24,021 nt of DNA from a virus (Duplodnaviria > Heunggongvirae > Uroviricota > Caudoviricetes): IMG/VR virus record IMGVR_UViG_638341084_000025. One strand, given 5' to 3'. Positions 5,118-9,926 of the stretch are shown in pieces. The stretch's first letter is position 1, and every line of letters begins with the position of its first letter. The notes beneath the pieces were generated by a model that was not told the DNA's origin, ran no database searches, and saw nothing but the letters and a program-made list of their open reading frames with translations. The translations under genes were made by a program, and so were the position numbers.

Positions 5118-7940
5118 ATGACGGCAGAGTATATCAGGGACTGGCAACAACCGCGCCACGCAGTGGGGCGTGAAGGAACGGAGATCCCCGCTCCTGAATC
5201 CGCGCTTTCCTCCTGGCTGGATGCCTACCGGGTAGAGAACGAACGCCGCCAGGAAATGGCTGATGCGGCGTTCTCCGCCACGCCGCTGGGCAACCTGATT
5301 AATAAAAGCCTGGACGCACAGGAAAAACAGGACAAAACCATCACACTGGCAGGAGACGCCAGAAAACAGGCACGTGGCGCGGTGGATGAAGCCATGGCCT
5401 CACTGCGCCTGCTGCCGTCCTATCTGCGCGATCCGCTTATTCGCCACCTCTCCTTCCTGCGCAAAAAACAGGAAGCCGATCGCCGGAAAGGCAAAAAGAG
5501 CTGGCAGGCTGAACGCTACGCGTGCGGAACCCTGCGCAAAATATTCGAACGTCTGGACCGCACCGACCACCGCTGGCTGACACCGGGTTATCGCTCCCTT
5601 GCCGGACGCGAACGCCTGGATGATTTGCTTTACCTGCCGCAGCTCAACAAACACCAGATACAGACGCTGGCCACCATGACGGCGGCGATGTTCAGCAGCA
5701 CCTTCGAAAAACTCTGCGATGGCTTTGGCGCGACTGATGGCGAGCTGACCATGGATGTAACGCTGAAGGCTTATCAGATGCTGGCCCGCATGGCGTTACA
5801 CCTGCACGCCATGCCTCCACATTATGACGCACTGACAACAGACAAAGACCGGAGGAACGAACCGGACACGGAGCTGCTGCCGGGCGCAATCCTTCGCCTG
5901 ACCTGTGCGGAATGGTGGAAACGCAAACTGTGGCTGTTACGTTGTGAGTGGCGGGAAGAACAACTCCGCGCCGCCTGTCTGGTTTCCAGAAAAACATCCC
6001 CCTATCTGAGCCAGGACGCGTTAAGCGAGTTTCGCGCACAGCGCGAGAAAACGCGCGATTTCCTGAAAAGTTTCATGCTGGAAAATGAAGACGGGTTCAC
6101 GATTGATCTCGAGACGGTGTATTACGCGGGAGTAAGTAACCCGGTTCACCGTAAGGCAGAAATGATGGCCACCATGAAGGGACTGGAACTTCTGGCCGAA
6201 GCCCGTGGCGACAGAGCGGTGTTTCTGACCGTCACCTGCCCGTCAAAATACCACGCAACAACGGAGAACGGTCATCCGAACCCCAAATGGAACGGGGCCA
6301 CCATGCGCGACTCCAGCGATTACCTGGTTAACACGTTTTTTGCGGCGGTCCGCAAAAAACTGAACCGCGACGGCCTGCGCTGGTATGGCATCCGCACGGT
6401 GGAGCCTCACCATGACGGCACTGTGCACTGGCATATGATGGTCTTTGCACATCCGGACGAGATTGAAACCATCGTGTCCCACGTCTGCGATATTGCCATT
6501 CAGGAGGACCGCCACGAGCTGGGCGATGACATAACTCCGCGTTTTAAGGCGGAGTATGTCGACGGCTCAAAAGGCACACCAACCAGCTACATCGCCACCT
6601 ACATCGGAAAGAACCTGGACAGCCGCGCCGTGGATGGCATCGACCCGAAAACGGGCAAGCCACGCGTTGACCACGAAACAGGTAAATCAATGGCCGAGAG
6701 CGTGGAGCGCGCCATCGGCTGGGCGCGCCTTCACCGGGTCCGTCAGTTCCAGTTCTTTGGCATCCCCTCCCGTCAGGTGTGGCGTGAACTGCGCCGCCTT
6801 GCCAGCCAGATGGCACGCAATCCGGAAGGCCCGCAACGGCTGAAAGATGATGCAATGGATGCGGTACTCGCTGCCGCCGATGCCGGGTGTTTTGCCACCT
6901 ACATTGAAAAACAGGGTGGCGTGCTTGTTCCACGCAAGGACTACCTGATTCGCACCGCCTACGACCTCGCAGATGAGCTGAACGATTACGGCGAACAGAG
7001 CGTACAGATTTACGGGATCTGGTCACCACTCATCGGGGAATCCTCCCGTGTGTGCACGCATCCGGATAACTGGAAGCTGGTAAGACGTAAACCAGAACCG
7101 GAAGACAACGCCCACGAAAATGGTTTTGACCTTCAGGGCGGCCCTGCCGCCCCTTGGACTCGTGGCAATAACTGTCCCCGTGTACAGGAAACAGGCAACA
7201 ACGGGACAGAACAGCCGGAAGAACGGCCAGCACCGTGGCCGCAGCTTCCTGACGGCGTTGAAGTAAATGAATGGATGCGCTCACTGAAACGGCACGAACG
7301 CCGGGCGCTGATGCGTTCGCTTCGTGACAAACAGGCAAAAAACAGCAGCGATGAAATGCAGAACTGGACACAGAGCCGCAAACAGCAGCGGCCTTTGCCT
7401 GATAACCACGAGTTACTCGCTAAAGAATGGCGGGAGTCTGCTGAATCTCTCGGCCTGCATATCGGTGAACAACAGATGCAGCACCTGTTACGGGGCGGCA
7501 GTCTGTACGTTGACGGCAGCATCATTGCACCGCAGGGATTTGAAATTGTACGCAAACCGGATACCCGCCCGGACAGCCGAATCACGCAGCTCTGGCAGCG
7601 TCTGAGCCGTAATCATGGCGTAAGCAGCACGGAGATCCGCCATAACCCGGTCGCCAGCTATCTGGCACAGCTGGGGGCATCAGACCCTGAAGCCGCCGCA
7701 CGCCTGGCATCCACACTTCAGCAGGACCAGAACACCATGAAAACACCCGTTACCGTGCTTTCTGACATGCTGCGCGCCATCCGCGACGCAGAGCACGCAC
7801 AGAGAATCAGTGAAACCACTGAACGCGCCAGCCGCAAAGCAGACCTGCTGCGGGGTGGCCTGACCAGTGGAAACAAAAAACAGACAGAAACGGGACTCAC
7901 GAATCCCGTAAATGAGCAAAAAACGCGCAGCGATATATGA
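5118..7940 (+). CDS. A: Replication initiation endonuclease, P2 gpA family (HUH rolling-circle initiator)
   Basis: 940 aa; HUH-type motif VHWHMMVF and paired active-site tyrosines YIATYIGK as in P2 A; position after the early genes. The C-terminal ~300 aa is low-complexity and appears to extend beyond P2 A (761 aa from memory). Confidence 0.85.
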   Translation: MTAEYIRDWQQPRHAVGREGTEIPAPESALSSWLDAYRVENERRQEMADAAFSATPLGNLINKSLDAQEKQDKTITLAGDARKQARGAVDEAMASLRLLPSYLRDPLIRHLSFLRKKQEADRRKGKKSWQAERYACGTLRKIFERLDRTDHRWLTPGYRSLAGRERLDDLLYLPQLNKHQIQTLATMTAAMFSSTFEKLCDGFGATDGELTMDVTLKAYQMLARMALHLHAMPPHYDALTTDKDRRNEPDTELLPGAILRLTCAEWWKRKLWLLRCEWREEQLRAACLVSRKTSPYLSQDALSEFRAQREKTRDFLKSFMLENEDGFTIDLETVYYAGVSNPVHRKAEMMATMKGLELLAEARGDRAVFLTVTCPSKYHATTENGHPNPKWNGATMRDSSDYLVNTFFAAVRKKLNRDGLRWYGIRTVEPHHDGTVHWHMMVFAHPDEIETIVSHVCDIAIQEDRHELGDDITPRFKAEYVDGSKGTPTSYIATYIGKNLDSRAVDGIDPKTGKPRVDHETGKSMAESVERAIGWARLHRVRQFQFFGIPSRQVWRELRRLASQMARNPEGPQRLKDDAMDAVLAAADAGCFATYIEKQGGVLVPRKDYLIRTAYDLADELNDYGEQSVQIYGIWSPLIGESSRVCTHPDNWKLVRRKPEPEDNAHENGFDLQGGPAAPWTRGNNCPRVQETGNNGTEQPEERPAPWPQLPDGVEVNEWMRSLKRHERRALMRSLRDKQAKNSSDEMQNWTQSRKQQRPLPDNHELLAKEWRESAESLGLHIGEQQMQHLLRGGSLYVDGSIIAPQGFEIVRKPDTRPDSRITQLWQRLSRNHGVSSTEIRHNPVASYLAQLGASDPEAAARLASTLQQDQNTMKTPVTVLSDMLRAIRDAEHAQRISETTERASRKADLLRGGLTSGNKKQTETGLTNPVNEQKTRSDI

Positions 7941-7982
7941 AGCGCGCACAAAACAGGCAAAAACGGGATTTCAGAATCCCGT
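7890..7982. promoter_or_regulatory. Two near-identical palindromes, candidate parC centromere/operator
   Basis: ACGGGACTCACGAATCCCGT (7890-7909, inside the A 3' end) and ACGGGATTTCAGAATCCCGT (7963-7982), centres ~73 bp apart, just upstream of the parM RBS AAGGAAAA. Confidence 0.35.
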
Positions 7983-8016
7983 AAACGATTAATTAATCAA
8001 CATAAGGAAAACCGAC

Positions 8017-8976
8017 ATGAAAATTTACATCGACGACGGCTCCACCAACATCAAGCTGGCATGGACTGAGAACGGCGAACGCCGCAACGCCATCAGCCCG
8101 AACAGCTTCAAGTCGGAATGGTCTGCGCCGTTCGGTGGCTCGCAGCCTGCTAACTACATGCTTGATGGCGTGCGCTATGGTTTTGATCCGGTCAGCGATC
8201 GCTTTGTCCAGACGACCGACACGCAATACCAGTACAGCGATGTGAATGTCATTGCCATTCATCACGCGCTGGTCAAATCAGACATCACGCCACAGGAAGT
8301 GGATGTGGTTGTTACCCTGCCACTGAGCGAATATTTCGACACAAACGCACAGCCGGACATGGCCAACATCAACCGCAAAAAAGCGAACGTCATGCGCCCG
8401 GTGGAGTACCAGAACGGCGAAGCATTCACTATCCGTAACGTACGGGTTATGCCTGAATCCATTCCGGCTGGCTTTAAAGCACTGGCTGACATGAGTCCGT
8501 TTGAATCCCTGCTGATTGTGGATTTGGGCGGAACCACGCTGGATGTGGCAAAGGTTCAGGGGCAACTGGCAGGTATCAGCCAGGTGTTTTGCGATCCACA
8601 CGTAGGCGTTTCTCTTATGGCCGATGCCGTACTGTCGGTGATGGCCACTAACGGTATGCGCACCAGTCACCACATCGCCAATACCATTATCGAACATCGC
8701 CATAATGAAGCCTGGCTGCGCCAGCACATCCACAATGACGCGCATTACGCCAGCCTGATGGCGGTTATTCGTGAAAAGGAAGAAACACTGAAACAACGCG
8801 TGATCCGCGCGCTGGCGGTTTTTTCGGGTTACGGGCGGGTGATGGTTGTCGGTGGCGGGGCGGAGATTGTGGCACCCGCTATCCGCGAAGCCTGCGGAGT
8901 TAATGCGACTTTCATCGCGGACGGGGTGCCACANTTTGCTCTGGTTAATGGGCTGTACGCAATGGACAAGGAGTAA
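8017..8976 (+). CDS. parM: Actin-like segregation ATPase ParM/StbA
   Basis: 319 aa; MKIYIDDGSTNIKLAW, YSDVNVIAIHHAL, VMPESIPAG, LIVDLGGTTLD and VMVVGGGAEI closely follow the remembered plasmid R1 ParM sequence. One N at 8934. Confidence 0.85.
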   Translation: MKIYIDDGSTNIKLAWTENGERRNAISPNSFKSEWSAPFGGSQPANYMLDGVRYGFDPVSDRFVQTTDTQYQYSDVNVIAIHHALVKSDITPQEVDVVVTLPLSEYFDTNAQPDMANINRKKANVMRPVEYQNGEAFTIRNVRVMPESIPAGFKALADMSPFESLLIVDLGGTTLDVAKVQGQLAGISQVFCDPHVGVSLMADAVLSVMATNGMRTSHHIANTIIEHRHNEAWLRQHIHNDAHYASLMAVIREKEETLKQRVIRALAVFSGYGRVMVVGGGAEIVAPAIREACGVNATFIADGVPXFALVNGLYAMDKE

Positions 8977-8980
8977 ACCA

Positions 8981-9292
8981 ATGACGACACCAACCAGACG
9001 GATAAGTTTCTATCTGAAGCCCGCCGCCGTCAAGAACGAAGGAGAAGCATGCGCCTGGCTGGACAGCCTTACACCAGAAGCCCGCAAAAGCGGCCAACGC
9101 GTGGCTTTTCTGGCCGGGCTGGCACTTCTGAAGACGAATCCGGCAGAGGCTTACCGACTGGCCGCATGGGCTGATGATGAGATGTTACCTGTGACACAAA
9201 TCAGCTCAAAAAAGTTTGAAGCACAGTCTGCACCAGTGGCTAAGATAACCAGCCAGATGGCTGGGAATATCCGGGCGTTATTTCCTGAGTAA
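8981..9292 (+). CDS. parR: ParR-like centromere-binding adaptor (putative)
   Basis: 103 aa immediately after parM (stop 8976, ATG 8981, RBS AAGGAG); N-terminal RISFYLKP...ACAWLDSL and FLAGLALL loosely resemble R1 ParR (RHH fold). Assigned mainly by position and size. Confidence 0.45.
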   Translation: MTTPTRRISFYLKPAAVKNEGEACAWLDSLTPEARKSGQRVAFLAGLALLKTNPAEAYRLAAWADDEMLPVTQISSKKFEAQSAPVAKITSQMAGNIRALFPE

Positions 9293-9412
9293 AAGCATCT
9301 GCGCGAAAAATGCTCACGTTTATAGAGACAGTATCATTCCATTTGGCACACTTACTTCAATAATCGATCTGTTAAACAAATAGATTGTCTATTATCTATC
9401 GATTAAAACGAT

Positions 9413-9477
9413 CAATTATCTTGACAGTAATGTGCCTTTTTGTAAGATCGTTCGCATTGTGAGCGACAAGATAATTG
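9413..9477 (+). promoter_or_regulatory. Candidate promoter (TTGACA-16 nt-TAAGAT) bracketed by a perfect 11-bp inverted repeat
   Basis: -35 TTGACA 9421-9426, -10 TAAGAT 9443-9448; CAATTATCTTG (9413-9423) and its reverse complement CAAGATAATTG (9467-9477) flank the core, as an operator would. Confidence 0.35.
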
Positions 9478-9498
9478 CGCGGCATTGTCCATGCAAAA

Positions 9499-9526
9499 CG
9501 CCCCAATAGCAGCAACTATTGGGGCG
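9499..9526 (-). terminator. Perfect 11-bp-stem hairpin; terminator-like on the minus strand
   Basis: CGCCCCAATAG (9499-9509) / CTATTGGGGCG (9516-9526), loop CAGCAA; on the minus strand it is followed by TTTT (rc of 9495-9498); no U-tract on the plus strand. Confidence 0.4.
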
Positions 9527-9554
9527 TAAAACTCGGTCGGACTCACTTAACCTG

Positions 9555-9635
9555 ATATGCGTGCCTTCCGAAGTAAATCAAAATGTGCGTCGTATATTTT
9601 ATTGCTTACACGCACCTCTGTAAAGGCACGCATAT
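9555..9635. repeat. 13-bp perfect inverted repeat enclosing an inner hairpin
   Basis: ATATGCGTGCCTT (9555-9567) and AAGGCACGCATAT (9623-9635), 55 bp apart; inner stem GTGCGT(9585-9590)/ACGCAC(9610-9615); followed on the plus strand by TTTTT, then GAGG and the GTG start of the next ORF. Confidence 0.5.
9596..9624 (-). promoter_or_regulatory. Candidate minus-strand promoter (TTTACA-17 nt-TAAAAT), convergent with the plus-strand promoter
   Basis: rc of 9619-9624 = TTTACA, 17-nt spacer, rc of 9596-9601 = TAAAAT; it would drive a ~100-nt transcript antisense to the ORF89 leader, ending at the 9499-9526 hairpin. Confidence 0.35.
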
Positions 9636-9656
9636 TTTTCCTATGAGGTAAATAAA

Positions 9657-9926
9657 GTGCGGGCTAAAACAGGTATTTGCAAGAACCCTCATCGTTATAA
9701 TCCAACATTTCTGTCTCTCCCTGAATATCAAGGACAAGAAGGTCGGCACAAATGCGCTGCCTGTGCTTTTGAGCTAGGCATAAAAGATGCGCTTGAAGGA
9801 CGCGCTATGGCTCAGAATGATTTAGTTTTAGCTAACATTCCGTTTAGCCAGGCTGGAACTGTAAGGCACAGAGATGCCTATGAAGCATATGTTCGTGGTT
9901 GGCGATTAATAAACAGCAACAATTGA
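9657..9926 (+). CDS. Small Cys/His protein (89 aa), possible zinc-binding; unknown function
   Basis: GTG start with GAGG 9 nt upstream; Cys8, His12, His32, Cys34, Cys37 arrangement; followed by a clean terminator. Last gene before cos (P2 has orf91/tin/old in this position). Confidence 0.5.
   Translation: MRAKTGICKNPHRYNPTFLSLPEYQGQEGRHKCAACAFELGIKDALEGRAMAQNDLVLANIPFSQAGTVRHRDAYEAYVRGWRLINSNN

Follow-up and report, generated by a model that had tools for sequence, protein, structure and literature searches.

The long C-terminal region of gene A in a P88-type prophage: lineage-typical length, a predicted in-gene origin and a cargo-dependent end

Is a phage replication protein that runs well past the length of its P2 counterpart a damaged or fused product, or is the added length part of its ordinary make-up? 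The question is raised by gene A of a virus of the Caudoviricetes, within a 24,021-nucleotide stretch of DNA (IMG/VR record IMGVR_UViG_638341084_000025) that is referred to here, in its entirety, as the window. The original prediction, made from the sequence, treated positions 6990 to 7940 as a long, low-complexity extension of A and proposed either a disordered interaction domain or a fusion or acquisition event at the border of an accessory island. It is very probable that A is an intact initiator of the P88 type, typical of its lineage, and that its C-terminal third is made up of conserved core with the origin, a module under selection, and a short read-through into neighboring cargo.

5118 to 7940, plus strand: gene A, rolling-circle replication initiator (HUH endonuclease) of 940 amino acids (aa); ATG-initiated open reading frame (ORF), Pfam Phage_GPA match, and identity to P88 gpA

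A belongs to the P2 gpA family and is essentially the P88 protein, an assignment already present in databases. The Phage_GPA profile (PF05840) is matched over its whole length by aa 179 to 503 (E = 1.7e-129; 431.9 bits against a cut-off of 31.4), PHROG 91, annotated as "nicking at origin of replication," matches with an E value of 8.5e-274, and identity to gpA of Escherichia phage P88 is 98.5% over the full length. The HUH motif (H437-W438-H439) and the tyrosines Y491 and Y495 are invariant in an alignment with the A proteins of P2, 186, and Fels-2; in P2 A, this motif and the tyrosine pair are presumably catalytic. The surrounding part of the window comes from a P88-type prophage of the P2 family (genus Xuanwuvirus), of which it forms the early, or replication, arm. 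The genes follow the P88 order, with small early ORFs followed by A, parM, parR, a few small ORFs, and then, on the other strand, the portal and terminase genes.

This arrangement is widespread. A 100% identical copy of positions 6900 to 9400 lies in the E. coli WS3294A chromosome (NZ_CP035819), and this interval occurs at 95% to 100% identity in 1,349 complete E. coli records, with some match in 1,437 of 5,426 genomes; 1,356 complete genomes of the species cover at least 80% of positions 7000 to 8016. More than 20,000 member sequences fall into the protein clusters of 940, 941, and 946 aa. Contrary to the suspicion of an unusual extension, A proteins of this lineage carry it uniformly, in 14 of 14 Xuanwuvirus phage records (93% to 99% identity) and in approximately 1,350 of the 5,426 complete E. 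coli genomes. Furthermore, a 913-aa Hafnia protein that is 62% identical overall has the same tail modules, including the terminal helix, and another ending. Because the tail is uniform across phages, genomes, and clusters, the length of A is normal for its lineage and signals neither an anomaly nor a frameshift. The suspected anomaly is thereby cleared, since an intact A of 940 aa is what this P2-like lineage, one of the commonest prophage lineages of E. coli, carries as standard.

The lengths behind the suspicion are themselves right, at 940 aa here and 761 aa in P2 (record coordinates 28034..30319); the A proteins of 186 and Fels-2 have 694 and 809 aa, respectively. The 179-aa excess over P2 A is divided between about 60 aa before the origin (an NNC motif falls at aa 684 compared with 624) and about 120 aa after it (254 compared with 135 post-origin residues). 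Alignment with the A proteins of P2, 186, and Fels-2, together with tblastn against phages, follows homology through about aa 796, and the lineage-specific part starts at about aa 801 to 816 (7518 to 7563). Position 6990, where the tail had been taken to start, coincides with no natural boundary. The residues that follow it, aa 625 to 688 (6990 to 7179), are conserved gpA core closing with a Pro/Gly/Glu-rich linker, whose DNA doubles as the predicted origin; the origin thus sits inside the region previously assigned to the tail.

7149 to 7179, plus strand: predicted replication origin core, encoding AAPWTRGNNC and also serving as a recombination breakpoint; alignment with the P2 nick site (29892) and the 186 ori

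The GenBank records of P2 and 186 annotate a nick site within gene A. Both annotated sites align with the window core at 7152 to 7175, and the P2 nick maps to approximately 7156; the origin is predicted, from this alignment, to lie within A at 7149 to 7179, with the nick near 7156. The DNA concerned is GCCGCCCCTTGGACTCGTGGCAATAACTGT (7146 to 7175), and the core is identical to that of Fels-2 over CCTTGGACTCGTGGCAATAACTGT. Additionally, a 44-nt island at 7140 to 7183 is 91% to 93% identical in the A genes of other E. coli prophages (H141-144), in which the flanks do not match. Such identity in otherwise nonmatching A genes is what would be expected of constraint at the DNA level.

The origin core is also the place at which A proteins change their tails. 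Relatives with bodies 92% to 100% identical to A carry unrelated tails, either of the CP-933T type (proteins of 830 to 834 aa) or of a type found in proteins of 870 to 879 aa (type II), and both occur on large genome contigs. In the CP-933T-type (830-aa) proteins, identity falls from 92% to 100% down to 15% to 39% across aa 677 to 687, and the 870- to 879-aa type behaves alike. In DNA, these relatives are 94% to 100% identical up to about 7179 and at once only 30% to 60% identical beyond it. The DNA breakpoints lie at 7148 and 7179, and those of L023, L025, and L021 bracket the origin core. Putative reciprocal hybrids show the opposite change: in P0140 and P0141, identity to the window A rises from about 50% to 96% to 98%, and a Fels-2-like body gives way near 7149 to a tail, parM, and parR with 96% to 100% identity to those of the window. 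Tails of approximately 75 to 255 residues, in at least four allelic forms, are thus found on A proteins with nearly identical bodies. The aligned proteins and genes indicate separate histories for the tail and the body of A, joined at the origin core.

Two further observations concern the ends of such genes. The first ~100 aa of A (5118 to ~5420) exist in two forms, which are only ~25% to 30% identical, in the 940-aa and 946-aa proteins, the bodies of which are otherwise 94% to 100% identical; this switch of N-terminal form is a third mosaic junction in the gene. At the other end, A genes whose tails are of the shorter type II or type III precede a small ORF (143 to 155 aa), the start of which overlaps the A stop codon (L012:5292-5759; L024/L025:6637-7092; L022:6490-6921) and which matched no Pfam family. 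The type II versions have a CxxC...CxxC N-terminus, and the P88 type is without such an ORF.

The part of A that is exchanged in this way begins directly after the origin and contains several recognizable units:

7180 to 7850, plus strand: post-origin tail module, aa ~688 to 911, exchanged as a unit and under purifying selection; segment identities, DNA breakpoints, and the ratio of nonsynonymous to synonymous substitution rates (dN/dS)
7395 to 7562, plus strand: alpha-alpha-beta-beta-beta unit, aa ~760 to 815, with an LLRGGS..DG motif; AlphaFold2 predicted local distance difference test (pLDDT) score of 80 to 85, motif aligning in P2 and Fels-2
7563 to 7715, plus strand: helical segment, aa ~816 to 866, with the motif RxDxxxDxxIxxxWxxxxxxHxxxxxxIRxxP; present in other gpA lineages, pLDDT 59 to 69
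7746 to 7859, plus strand: long terminal helix, aa ~877 to 914, of the P88-type tail and the Hafnia relative; pLDDT 63 to 76, kept with non-parMR cargo

Up to about aa 905, the tail is real protein under purifying selection. Among 12 P88-like A genes, variation in the tail is mostly third-position, and dN/dS is 0.18 for aa 691 to 800, 0.12 for aa 801 to 866, and 0.27 for aa 867 to 905, compared with 0.11 for the catalytic domain. Moreover, a gpA of 841 aa from another lineage (P0030) and the type II tails share the segment at aa ~808 to 866 (R.D...D..I...W......H......IR..P). Modeled by AlphaFold2 with a 26-sequence alignment, the tail continues from the alpha/beta unit as helices through aa 871, at pLDDT 59 to 69, and then as the long helix of aa 877 to 914.

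An intrinsically disordered, low-complexity interaction region is an unlikely description of such a tail. AlphaFold2 run on the single sequence gave low confidence (pLDDT 47.5), the hydrophobic content of the tail is 22% compared with 29%, and Gln, Ser, Asn, and Pro are enriched, all of which would suit disorder. With the alignment, however, 108 of 250 residues reach pLDDT 70 to 90 in defined helices and a three-stranded sheet, and aa 801 to 866 are under purifying selection as strong as that on the catalytic domain. Nor is the tail low in complexity, its Shannon entropy being 4.07 bits (aa 625 to 940) compared with 4.14 bits for aa 1 to 624; windowed entropies are equal, and the lowest 12-residue window has 2.36 bits in the tail and 1.90 bits in the body. 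The composition described as Arg/Gln/Glu-rich reduces to Gln, the only one of the three that is clearly enriched (7.6% compared with 3.5% in the body; Arg, 9.5% and 9.3%; Glu, 8.2% and 6.9%), and the supposed repeated basic motifs do not stand out, clusters of Lys and Arg being about as dense in the tail (2.2 per 100 aa) as in the body (2.1). What stands of the proposed disordered domain are three stretches, aa 691 to 704, 743 to 754, and 915 to 940, which stay below pLDDT 50 even with the alignment; it fails for the confident alpha/beta unit and for the helices through aa 914.

The base composition of the tail carries no foreign signature, its GC content being equal to that of the A body. Since no more than 77 post-origin residues suffice for 186 A, the tail is probably not part of catalysis. 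It would most likely be an accessory module that binds DNA or a host factor and so aids use of the origin, for example by recruiting a host helicase. An exhaustive HMMER search with aa 801 to 940 against 1.84 billion representatives returned 16 matches and no free-standing homologue; its non-gpA matches (P0024, P0027, and P0032) are multi-stretch matches to repeat proteins and were taken as spurious. Word-indexed searches for homologues of the tail recovered nothing beyond fragments of this protein, and the literature searched contained nothing on it. A separate 101-aa protein (P0022; Pfam DUF4761; five contigs) combines an N-terminus of the DUF4761 type with the A-tail segment RPDSRITQLWQRLSRNHGVSSTE; it probably remains from a deletion in a P88-like prophage that fused an early gene to the A tail.

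Beyond the tail module, the A frame enters the region of the parMR genes and of two palindromes that precede them:

7874 to 7915, no strand assigned: predicted parC repeat 1, with the 20-bp palindrome ACGGGACTCACGAATCCCGT at 7890 to 7909, inside the A coding sequence
7947 to 7988, no strand assigned: predicted parC repeat 2, with the palindrome ACGGGATTTCAGAATCCCGT at 7963 to 7982, 73 bp from repeat 1
8017 to 8976, plus strand: parM, actin-like segregation ATPase; Pfam StbA_N (9.8e-81) and ParM C-terminal domain (6e-67)
8981 to 9292, plus strand: parR, 103 aa, Plasmid_stab_B (PF10784, 9.8e-24); coordinates as in the P88 annotation

As the original prediction had it, A ends over the first of the palindromes upstream of parM, positions 7890 to 7909 lying in codons 925 to 931 and the stop codon at 7938 to 7940. 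The palindromes have the form ACGGGA-N8-TCCCGT, and each is set in a 42-nt direct repeat, the two repeats flanking a 53-bp core. The pattern has two exact matches in the window compared with 0.03 expected, and the 73-bp spacing of the repeats corresponds to about seven helical turns. Variation falls mainly in the central spacer, with single-base changes of the arms in some alleles, and the palindromes travel with the parMR cassette. At least three ParR alleles (~98%, 84%, and 55% identity) are found behind essentially identical palindromes (window 8981 to 9292 compared with L020:1330-1644 and L001:9820-10131), and all of them keep identical first 17 residues, MTTPTRRISFYLKPAAVK, and a C-terminal NIxxLFPE. 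The two palindromes are probably parC sites, predicted to bind ParR, and would then act as both centromere and operator for parMR.

That the palindromes are intrinsic terminators of leftward, minus-strand transcripts, or other RNA hairpins, is by comparison improbable. Both do resemble terminators on the minus strand, where 8-bp stems are followed by T-rich tracts. However, both parM and parR read in the plus direction, which makes a leftward transcript unexpected here, and the number of terminator-like sites, 4 compared with 1.9 +/- 1.3 expected, is not above chance. Association with parMR, placement in the 42-nt direct repeats 73 bp apart, and variation that is mostly confined to the central spacer likewise speak against terminators.

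Outside the cassette itself, DNA upstream of plasmid parM homologues showed no similarity to the A tail or to the palindromes, and the literature searched held nothing on parMR in P88-like phages. Two plasmid-borne places were counted for the window region among complete E. coli genomes. A 34.5-kb circular E. coli "plasmid," NZ_CP148288.1 (L019, 1-34461), is a complete P88-like phage with structural genes as well as integrase, cox, A, and parMR. Either the assembly caught an excised circle, or the prophage is episomal. The latter, if true, would give the parMR cassette a purpose.

The extreme end of A differs from the module before it:

7854 to 7940, plus strand: cargo-dependent, protein-neutral end of A, aa ~913 to 940, the last 21 codons (from ~7871) being part of the parMRC cassette; dN/dS, variants, and indels

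The last ~21 to 28 residues of A are set by the neighboring cassette and are unconstrained as protein. Their dN/dS is 0.99, and pLDDT there is below 50. In the CS18F and HSP60 prophages, in which an AAA-ATPase and an S8 peptidase replace parMR, A has 927 aa and ends in ..LLQDKGNSEKKK; these genes match the window up to approximately 7826 to 7850 and then diverge. A 910-aa variant of A has yet another ending. In a genome with a type II A (L012), a separate 155-aa zinc-ribbon ORF between A and parM ends in KKQTKTGFTNPVNEQKTRRDI, the same 21 residues that close A in the window. By BLASTP, this ORF and the A tail share 20 of 29 residues (E = 2e-11) and nothing upstream, and members of the ORF family end differently where no parMRC follows. 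The terminal 21 residues are shared with a different ORF only before parMRC, which assigns the last 21 codons of A to the parMRC cassette, into which any ORF lying upstream reads. Homology of the terminal helix of A to the 151- to 155-aa zinc-ribbon ORF was considered and rejected, as BLASTP matched the parC read-through peptide only and the likeness in a MAFFT alignment was too weak.

The proposal of a fusion or acquisition at the island boundary accordingly survives for the last ~21 to 28 codons, which are linked to the cargo, and not for the rest, though the whole post-origin tail exchanges at the origin core. Its stronger form holds that the entire tail (starting at aa 625 or 801 and running to 940) arrived together with the parMR island through fusion with a cargo gene and functions with ParMR; this is very unlikely. 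Besides the cassette origin of the final 21 codons, this explanation could draw on the tail being more conserved than the rest of A in divergent phages and on the separate 151- to 155-aa ORF that stands between A and the cargo in type II relatives. However, prophages with the AAA-ATPase and S8 peptidase or other cargo retain the tail through about aa 903 to 911, and the BLASTP match of the tail to the separate ORF is confined to the last 29 residues. The equal GC content of tail and body also counts against it, as does the Hafnia homologue, which has the tail modules and a different ending.

A sequencing or assembly frameshift that fused A to a downstream ORF has next to no chance of being the explanation, for although homopolymer indels occur near the end of A and one gene with such an indel is flagged as frameshifted by PGAP, it is refuted by a 940- to 946-aa frame that is uniform across independent assemblies (the 14 phage records, the ~1,350 complete genomes, and the clusters of more than 20,000 sequences), by the dominance of third-position variation with dN/dS of 0.12 to 0.27 through aa 905, and by the confinement of the indels to the last ~20 residues.

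The indels themselves are one-base changes in A-runs at 7874 and 7917 that shift the last ~20 codons only (the isolated phage Chuche and two genomes) and yield products of 938 and 957 aa. Of the A genes with A-run indels in L013 (NZ_CP101305.1, 101-2942) and L015 (NZ_CP020835.1, 119-2992), RefSeq calls one, a third case flagged by PGAP, a frameshifted pseudogene and the other a 957-aa protein. Annotation pipelines can thus miscall such A genes as pseudogenes when a homopolymer indel alters the dispensable last ~20 residues (one case).

The cargo dependence of the A end has a known setting, the interval between gpA and gpQ being a described hotspot of variation in P2-like phages (Rousset et al. 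2022, PMC9122126). Between near-identical flanks, the cargo alternates among parMR (the window), an AAA-ATPase with an S8 peptidase (CS18F and HSP60), and Fic/Phd (Shigella boydii). In L010:4565-7855 and L011:4565-7829, equivalent to the window from about 7941 onward, an AAA-family ATPase with a weak C-terminal helix-turn-helix match and an S8 peptidase replace parMR; the pair is presumably defense-type cargo of the hotspot. In the window itself, G+C content drops to 0.40 to 0.44 at 9200 to 9800, just past parR, compared with 0.52 to 0.61 in A and parMR, and more cargo of separate acquisition may thus lie ahead of the portal gene.

From these patterns, a sequence of events can be proposed. The tail module is inherited apart from the catalytic body, with the short conserved origin sequence probably serving as the crossover point. 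The core would be kept across lineages since its recognition and cutting are required, and it may be preferred for crossover for one of two reasons: no other stretch is conserved between lineages, or nicking at this site stimulates recombination. Crossover at the origin could run via nick-stimulated recombination or via initiator-mediated strand transfer between co-replicating phages. From about 7850, the A frame runs into whatever cargo fills the gpA-gpQ hotspot, here the left end of parMRC. A more general idea is tentative and perhaps holds less readily than it fails: the effective left edge of the P2-family hotspot may be the in-gene origin nick site, its ~30-nt core acting as the preferred crossover, so that tail and cargo would be reshuffled in nested blocks and the C-terminus of A rewritten at each cargo swap. 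The papers searched do not describe a left hotspot junction inside the 3ʹ end of A, the origin as a second junction, or a parC site in the A frame.

Several points weigh against this account of A and its surroundings. The position of the origin comes from homology only. As for the putative reciprocal hybrids, they come from one metagenome scaffold with 186-like early genes and one Logan contig only, their junction is spanned by no complete E. coli genome, and they could be chimeric assemblies. The model of the tail, built on a shallow alignment, reaches only moderate confidence (mean pLDDT 64); dN/dS values for short terminal segments rest on few substitutions. Scanned alone, the tail had no Pfam or NCBIfam match and matched only gpA families among PHROGs; a sequence search of the PDB with the tail gave no match, and Foldseek comparison of the alignment-based model with the PDB and BFVD gave none below an E value of 0.05. 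With regard to the cassette, a consensus scan found no sigma-70 promoter for parM, and parC of the R1 type normally consists of iteron arrays, not of two palindromes.

The preferred reading of A as an intact P88-type initiator with a composite C-terminal third has consequences beyond this gene. With at least four allelic forms on near-identical bodies, the post-origin tail is a candidate specificity or interaction module of a classic, structurally uncharacterized initiator. Hotspot analyses that delimit cargo as lying "between gpA and gpQ" miss the junction inside A and the second one at the origin. The pattern of the origin as a breakpoint is the one modestly new point.

Compared with known systems, the closest is P88 itself. 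Its gpA (Xuanwuvirus P88, YP_009113059; NC_026014) likewise has 940 aa and the same neighbors, including the small ORFs upstream and parM and parR downstream, and differs from the window A by few substitutions only, for example in the flank of palindrome 1, which has T in the window and C in P88. The P88 paper does not discuss the tail of A (PMC5285337).

The A proteins of P2 and 186 share with the window A the Phage_GPA domain, the HUH motif, the paired tyrosines, and an origin within the gene, with the common core ..GGA(G/C)T..TG(T/G)CAATAACTGT, as well as ERRAL and LLRGG-type C-terminal motifs. Overall identity is 32% to 33%, the post-origin parts comprise 135 (P2), 77 (186), and 254 (window) residues, and aa ~816 to 912 of the window A have no counterpart in either protein. 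The Fels-2/PsP3-type gpA (809 aa) is closer, at 45% identity in a four-protein alignment and 41.8% by tblastn. Its pre-origin length is the same as in the window A (NNC at aa 684), and its origin core is identical; its tail stops ~30 residues past LLRGGS and lacks the RNHGV-type motif and the terminal helix.

The accessory island of the window occupies the same place, between A and the portal gene, as the hotspot of Rousset et al. That study (PMC9122126) takes the hotspot to comprise the genes that separate gpA from gpQ, whereas here the left junction falls inside the 3ʹ end of A (~7826 to 7871) and a second one at the origin.

The cassette resembles type II (R1-like) ParMRC systems in its actin-like ParM, its Plasmid_stab_B ParR, and its repeated sites upstream of parM around a core of ~53 bp; the C-terminal NIxxLFPE of ParR is common to the window protein and its plasmid homologue. 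It differs in having two 20-bp palindromes where R1-like systems have arrays of 10- to 11-bp iterons, as in the corresponding upstream region of an IncL/M plasmid. On that plasmid (L008:1290-1465; parM ~66% identical in DNA), T-rich iterated units of ~10 bp precede parM, and two 30-nt repeat blocks are also 73 bp apart, their sequences being unrelated to the palindrome repeats of the window. Unlike the plasmid system, the ParMRC of the window is carried by an integrating P2-like prophage, with its first predicted site embedded in the coding sequence of a replication gene.

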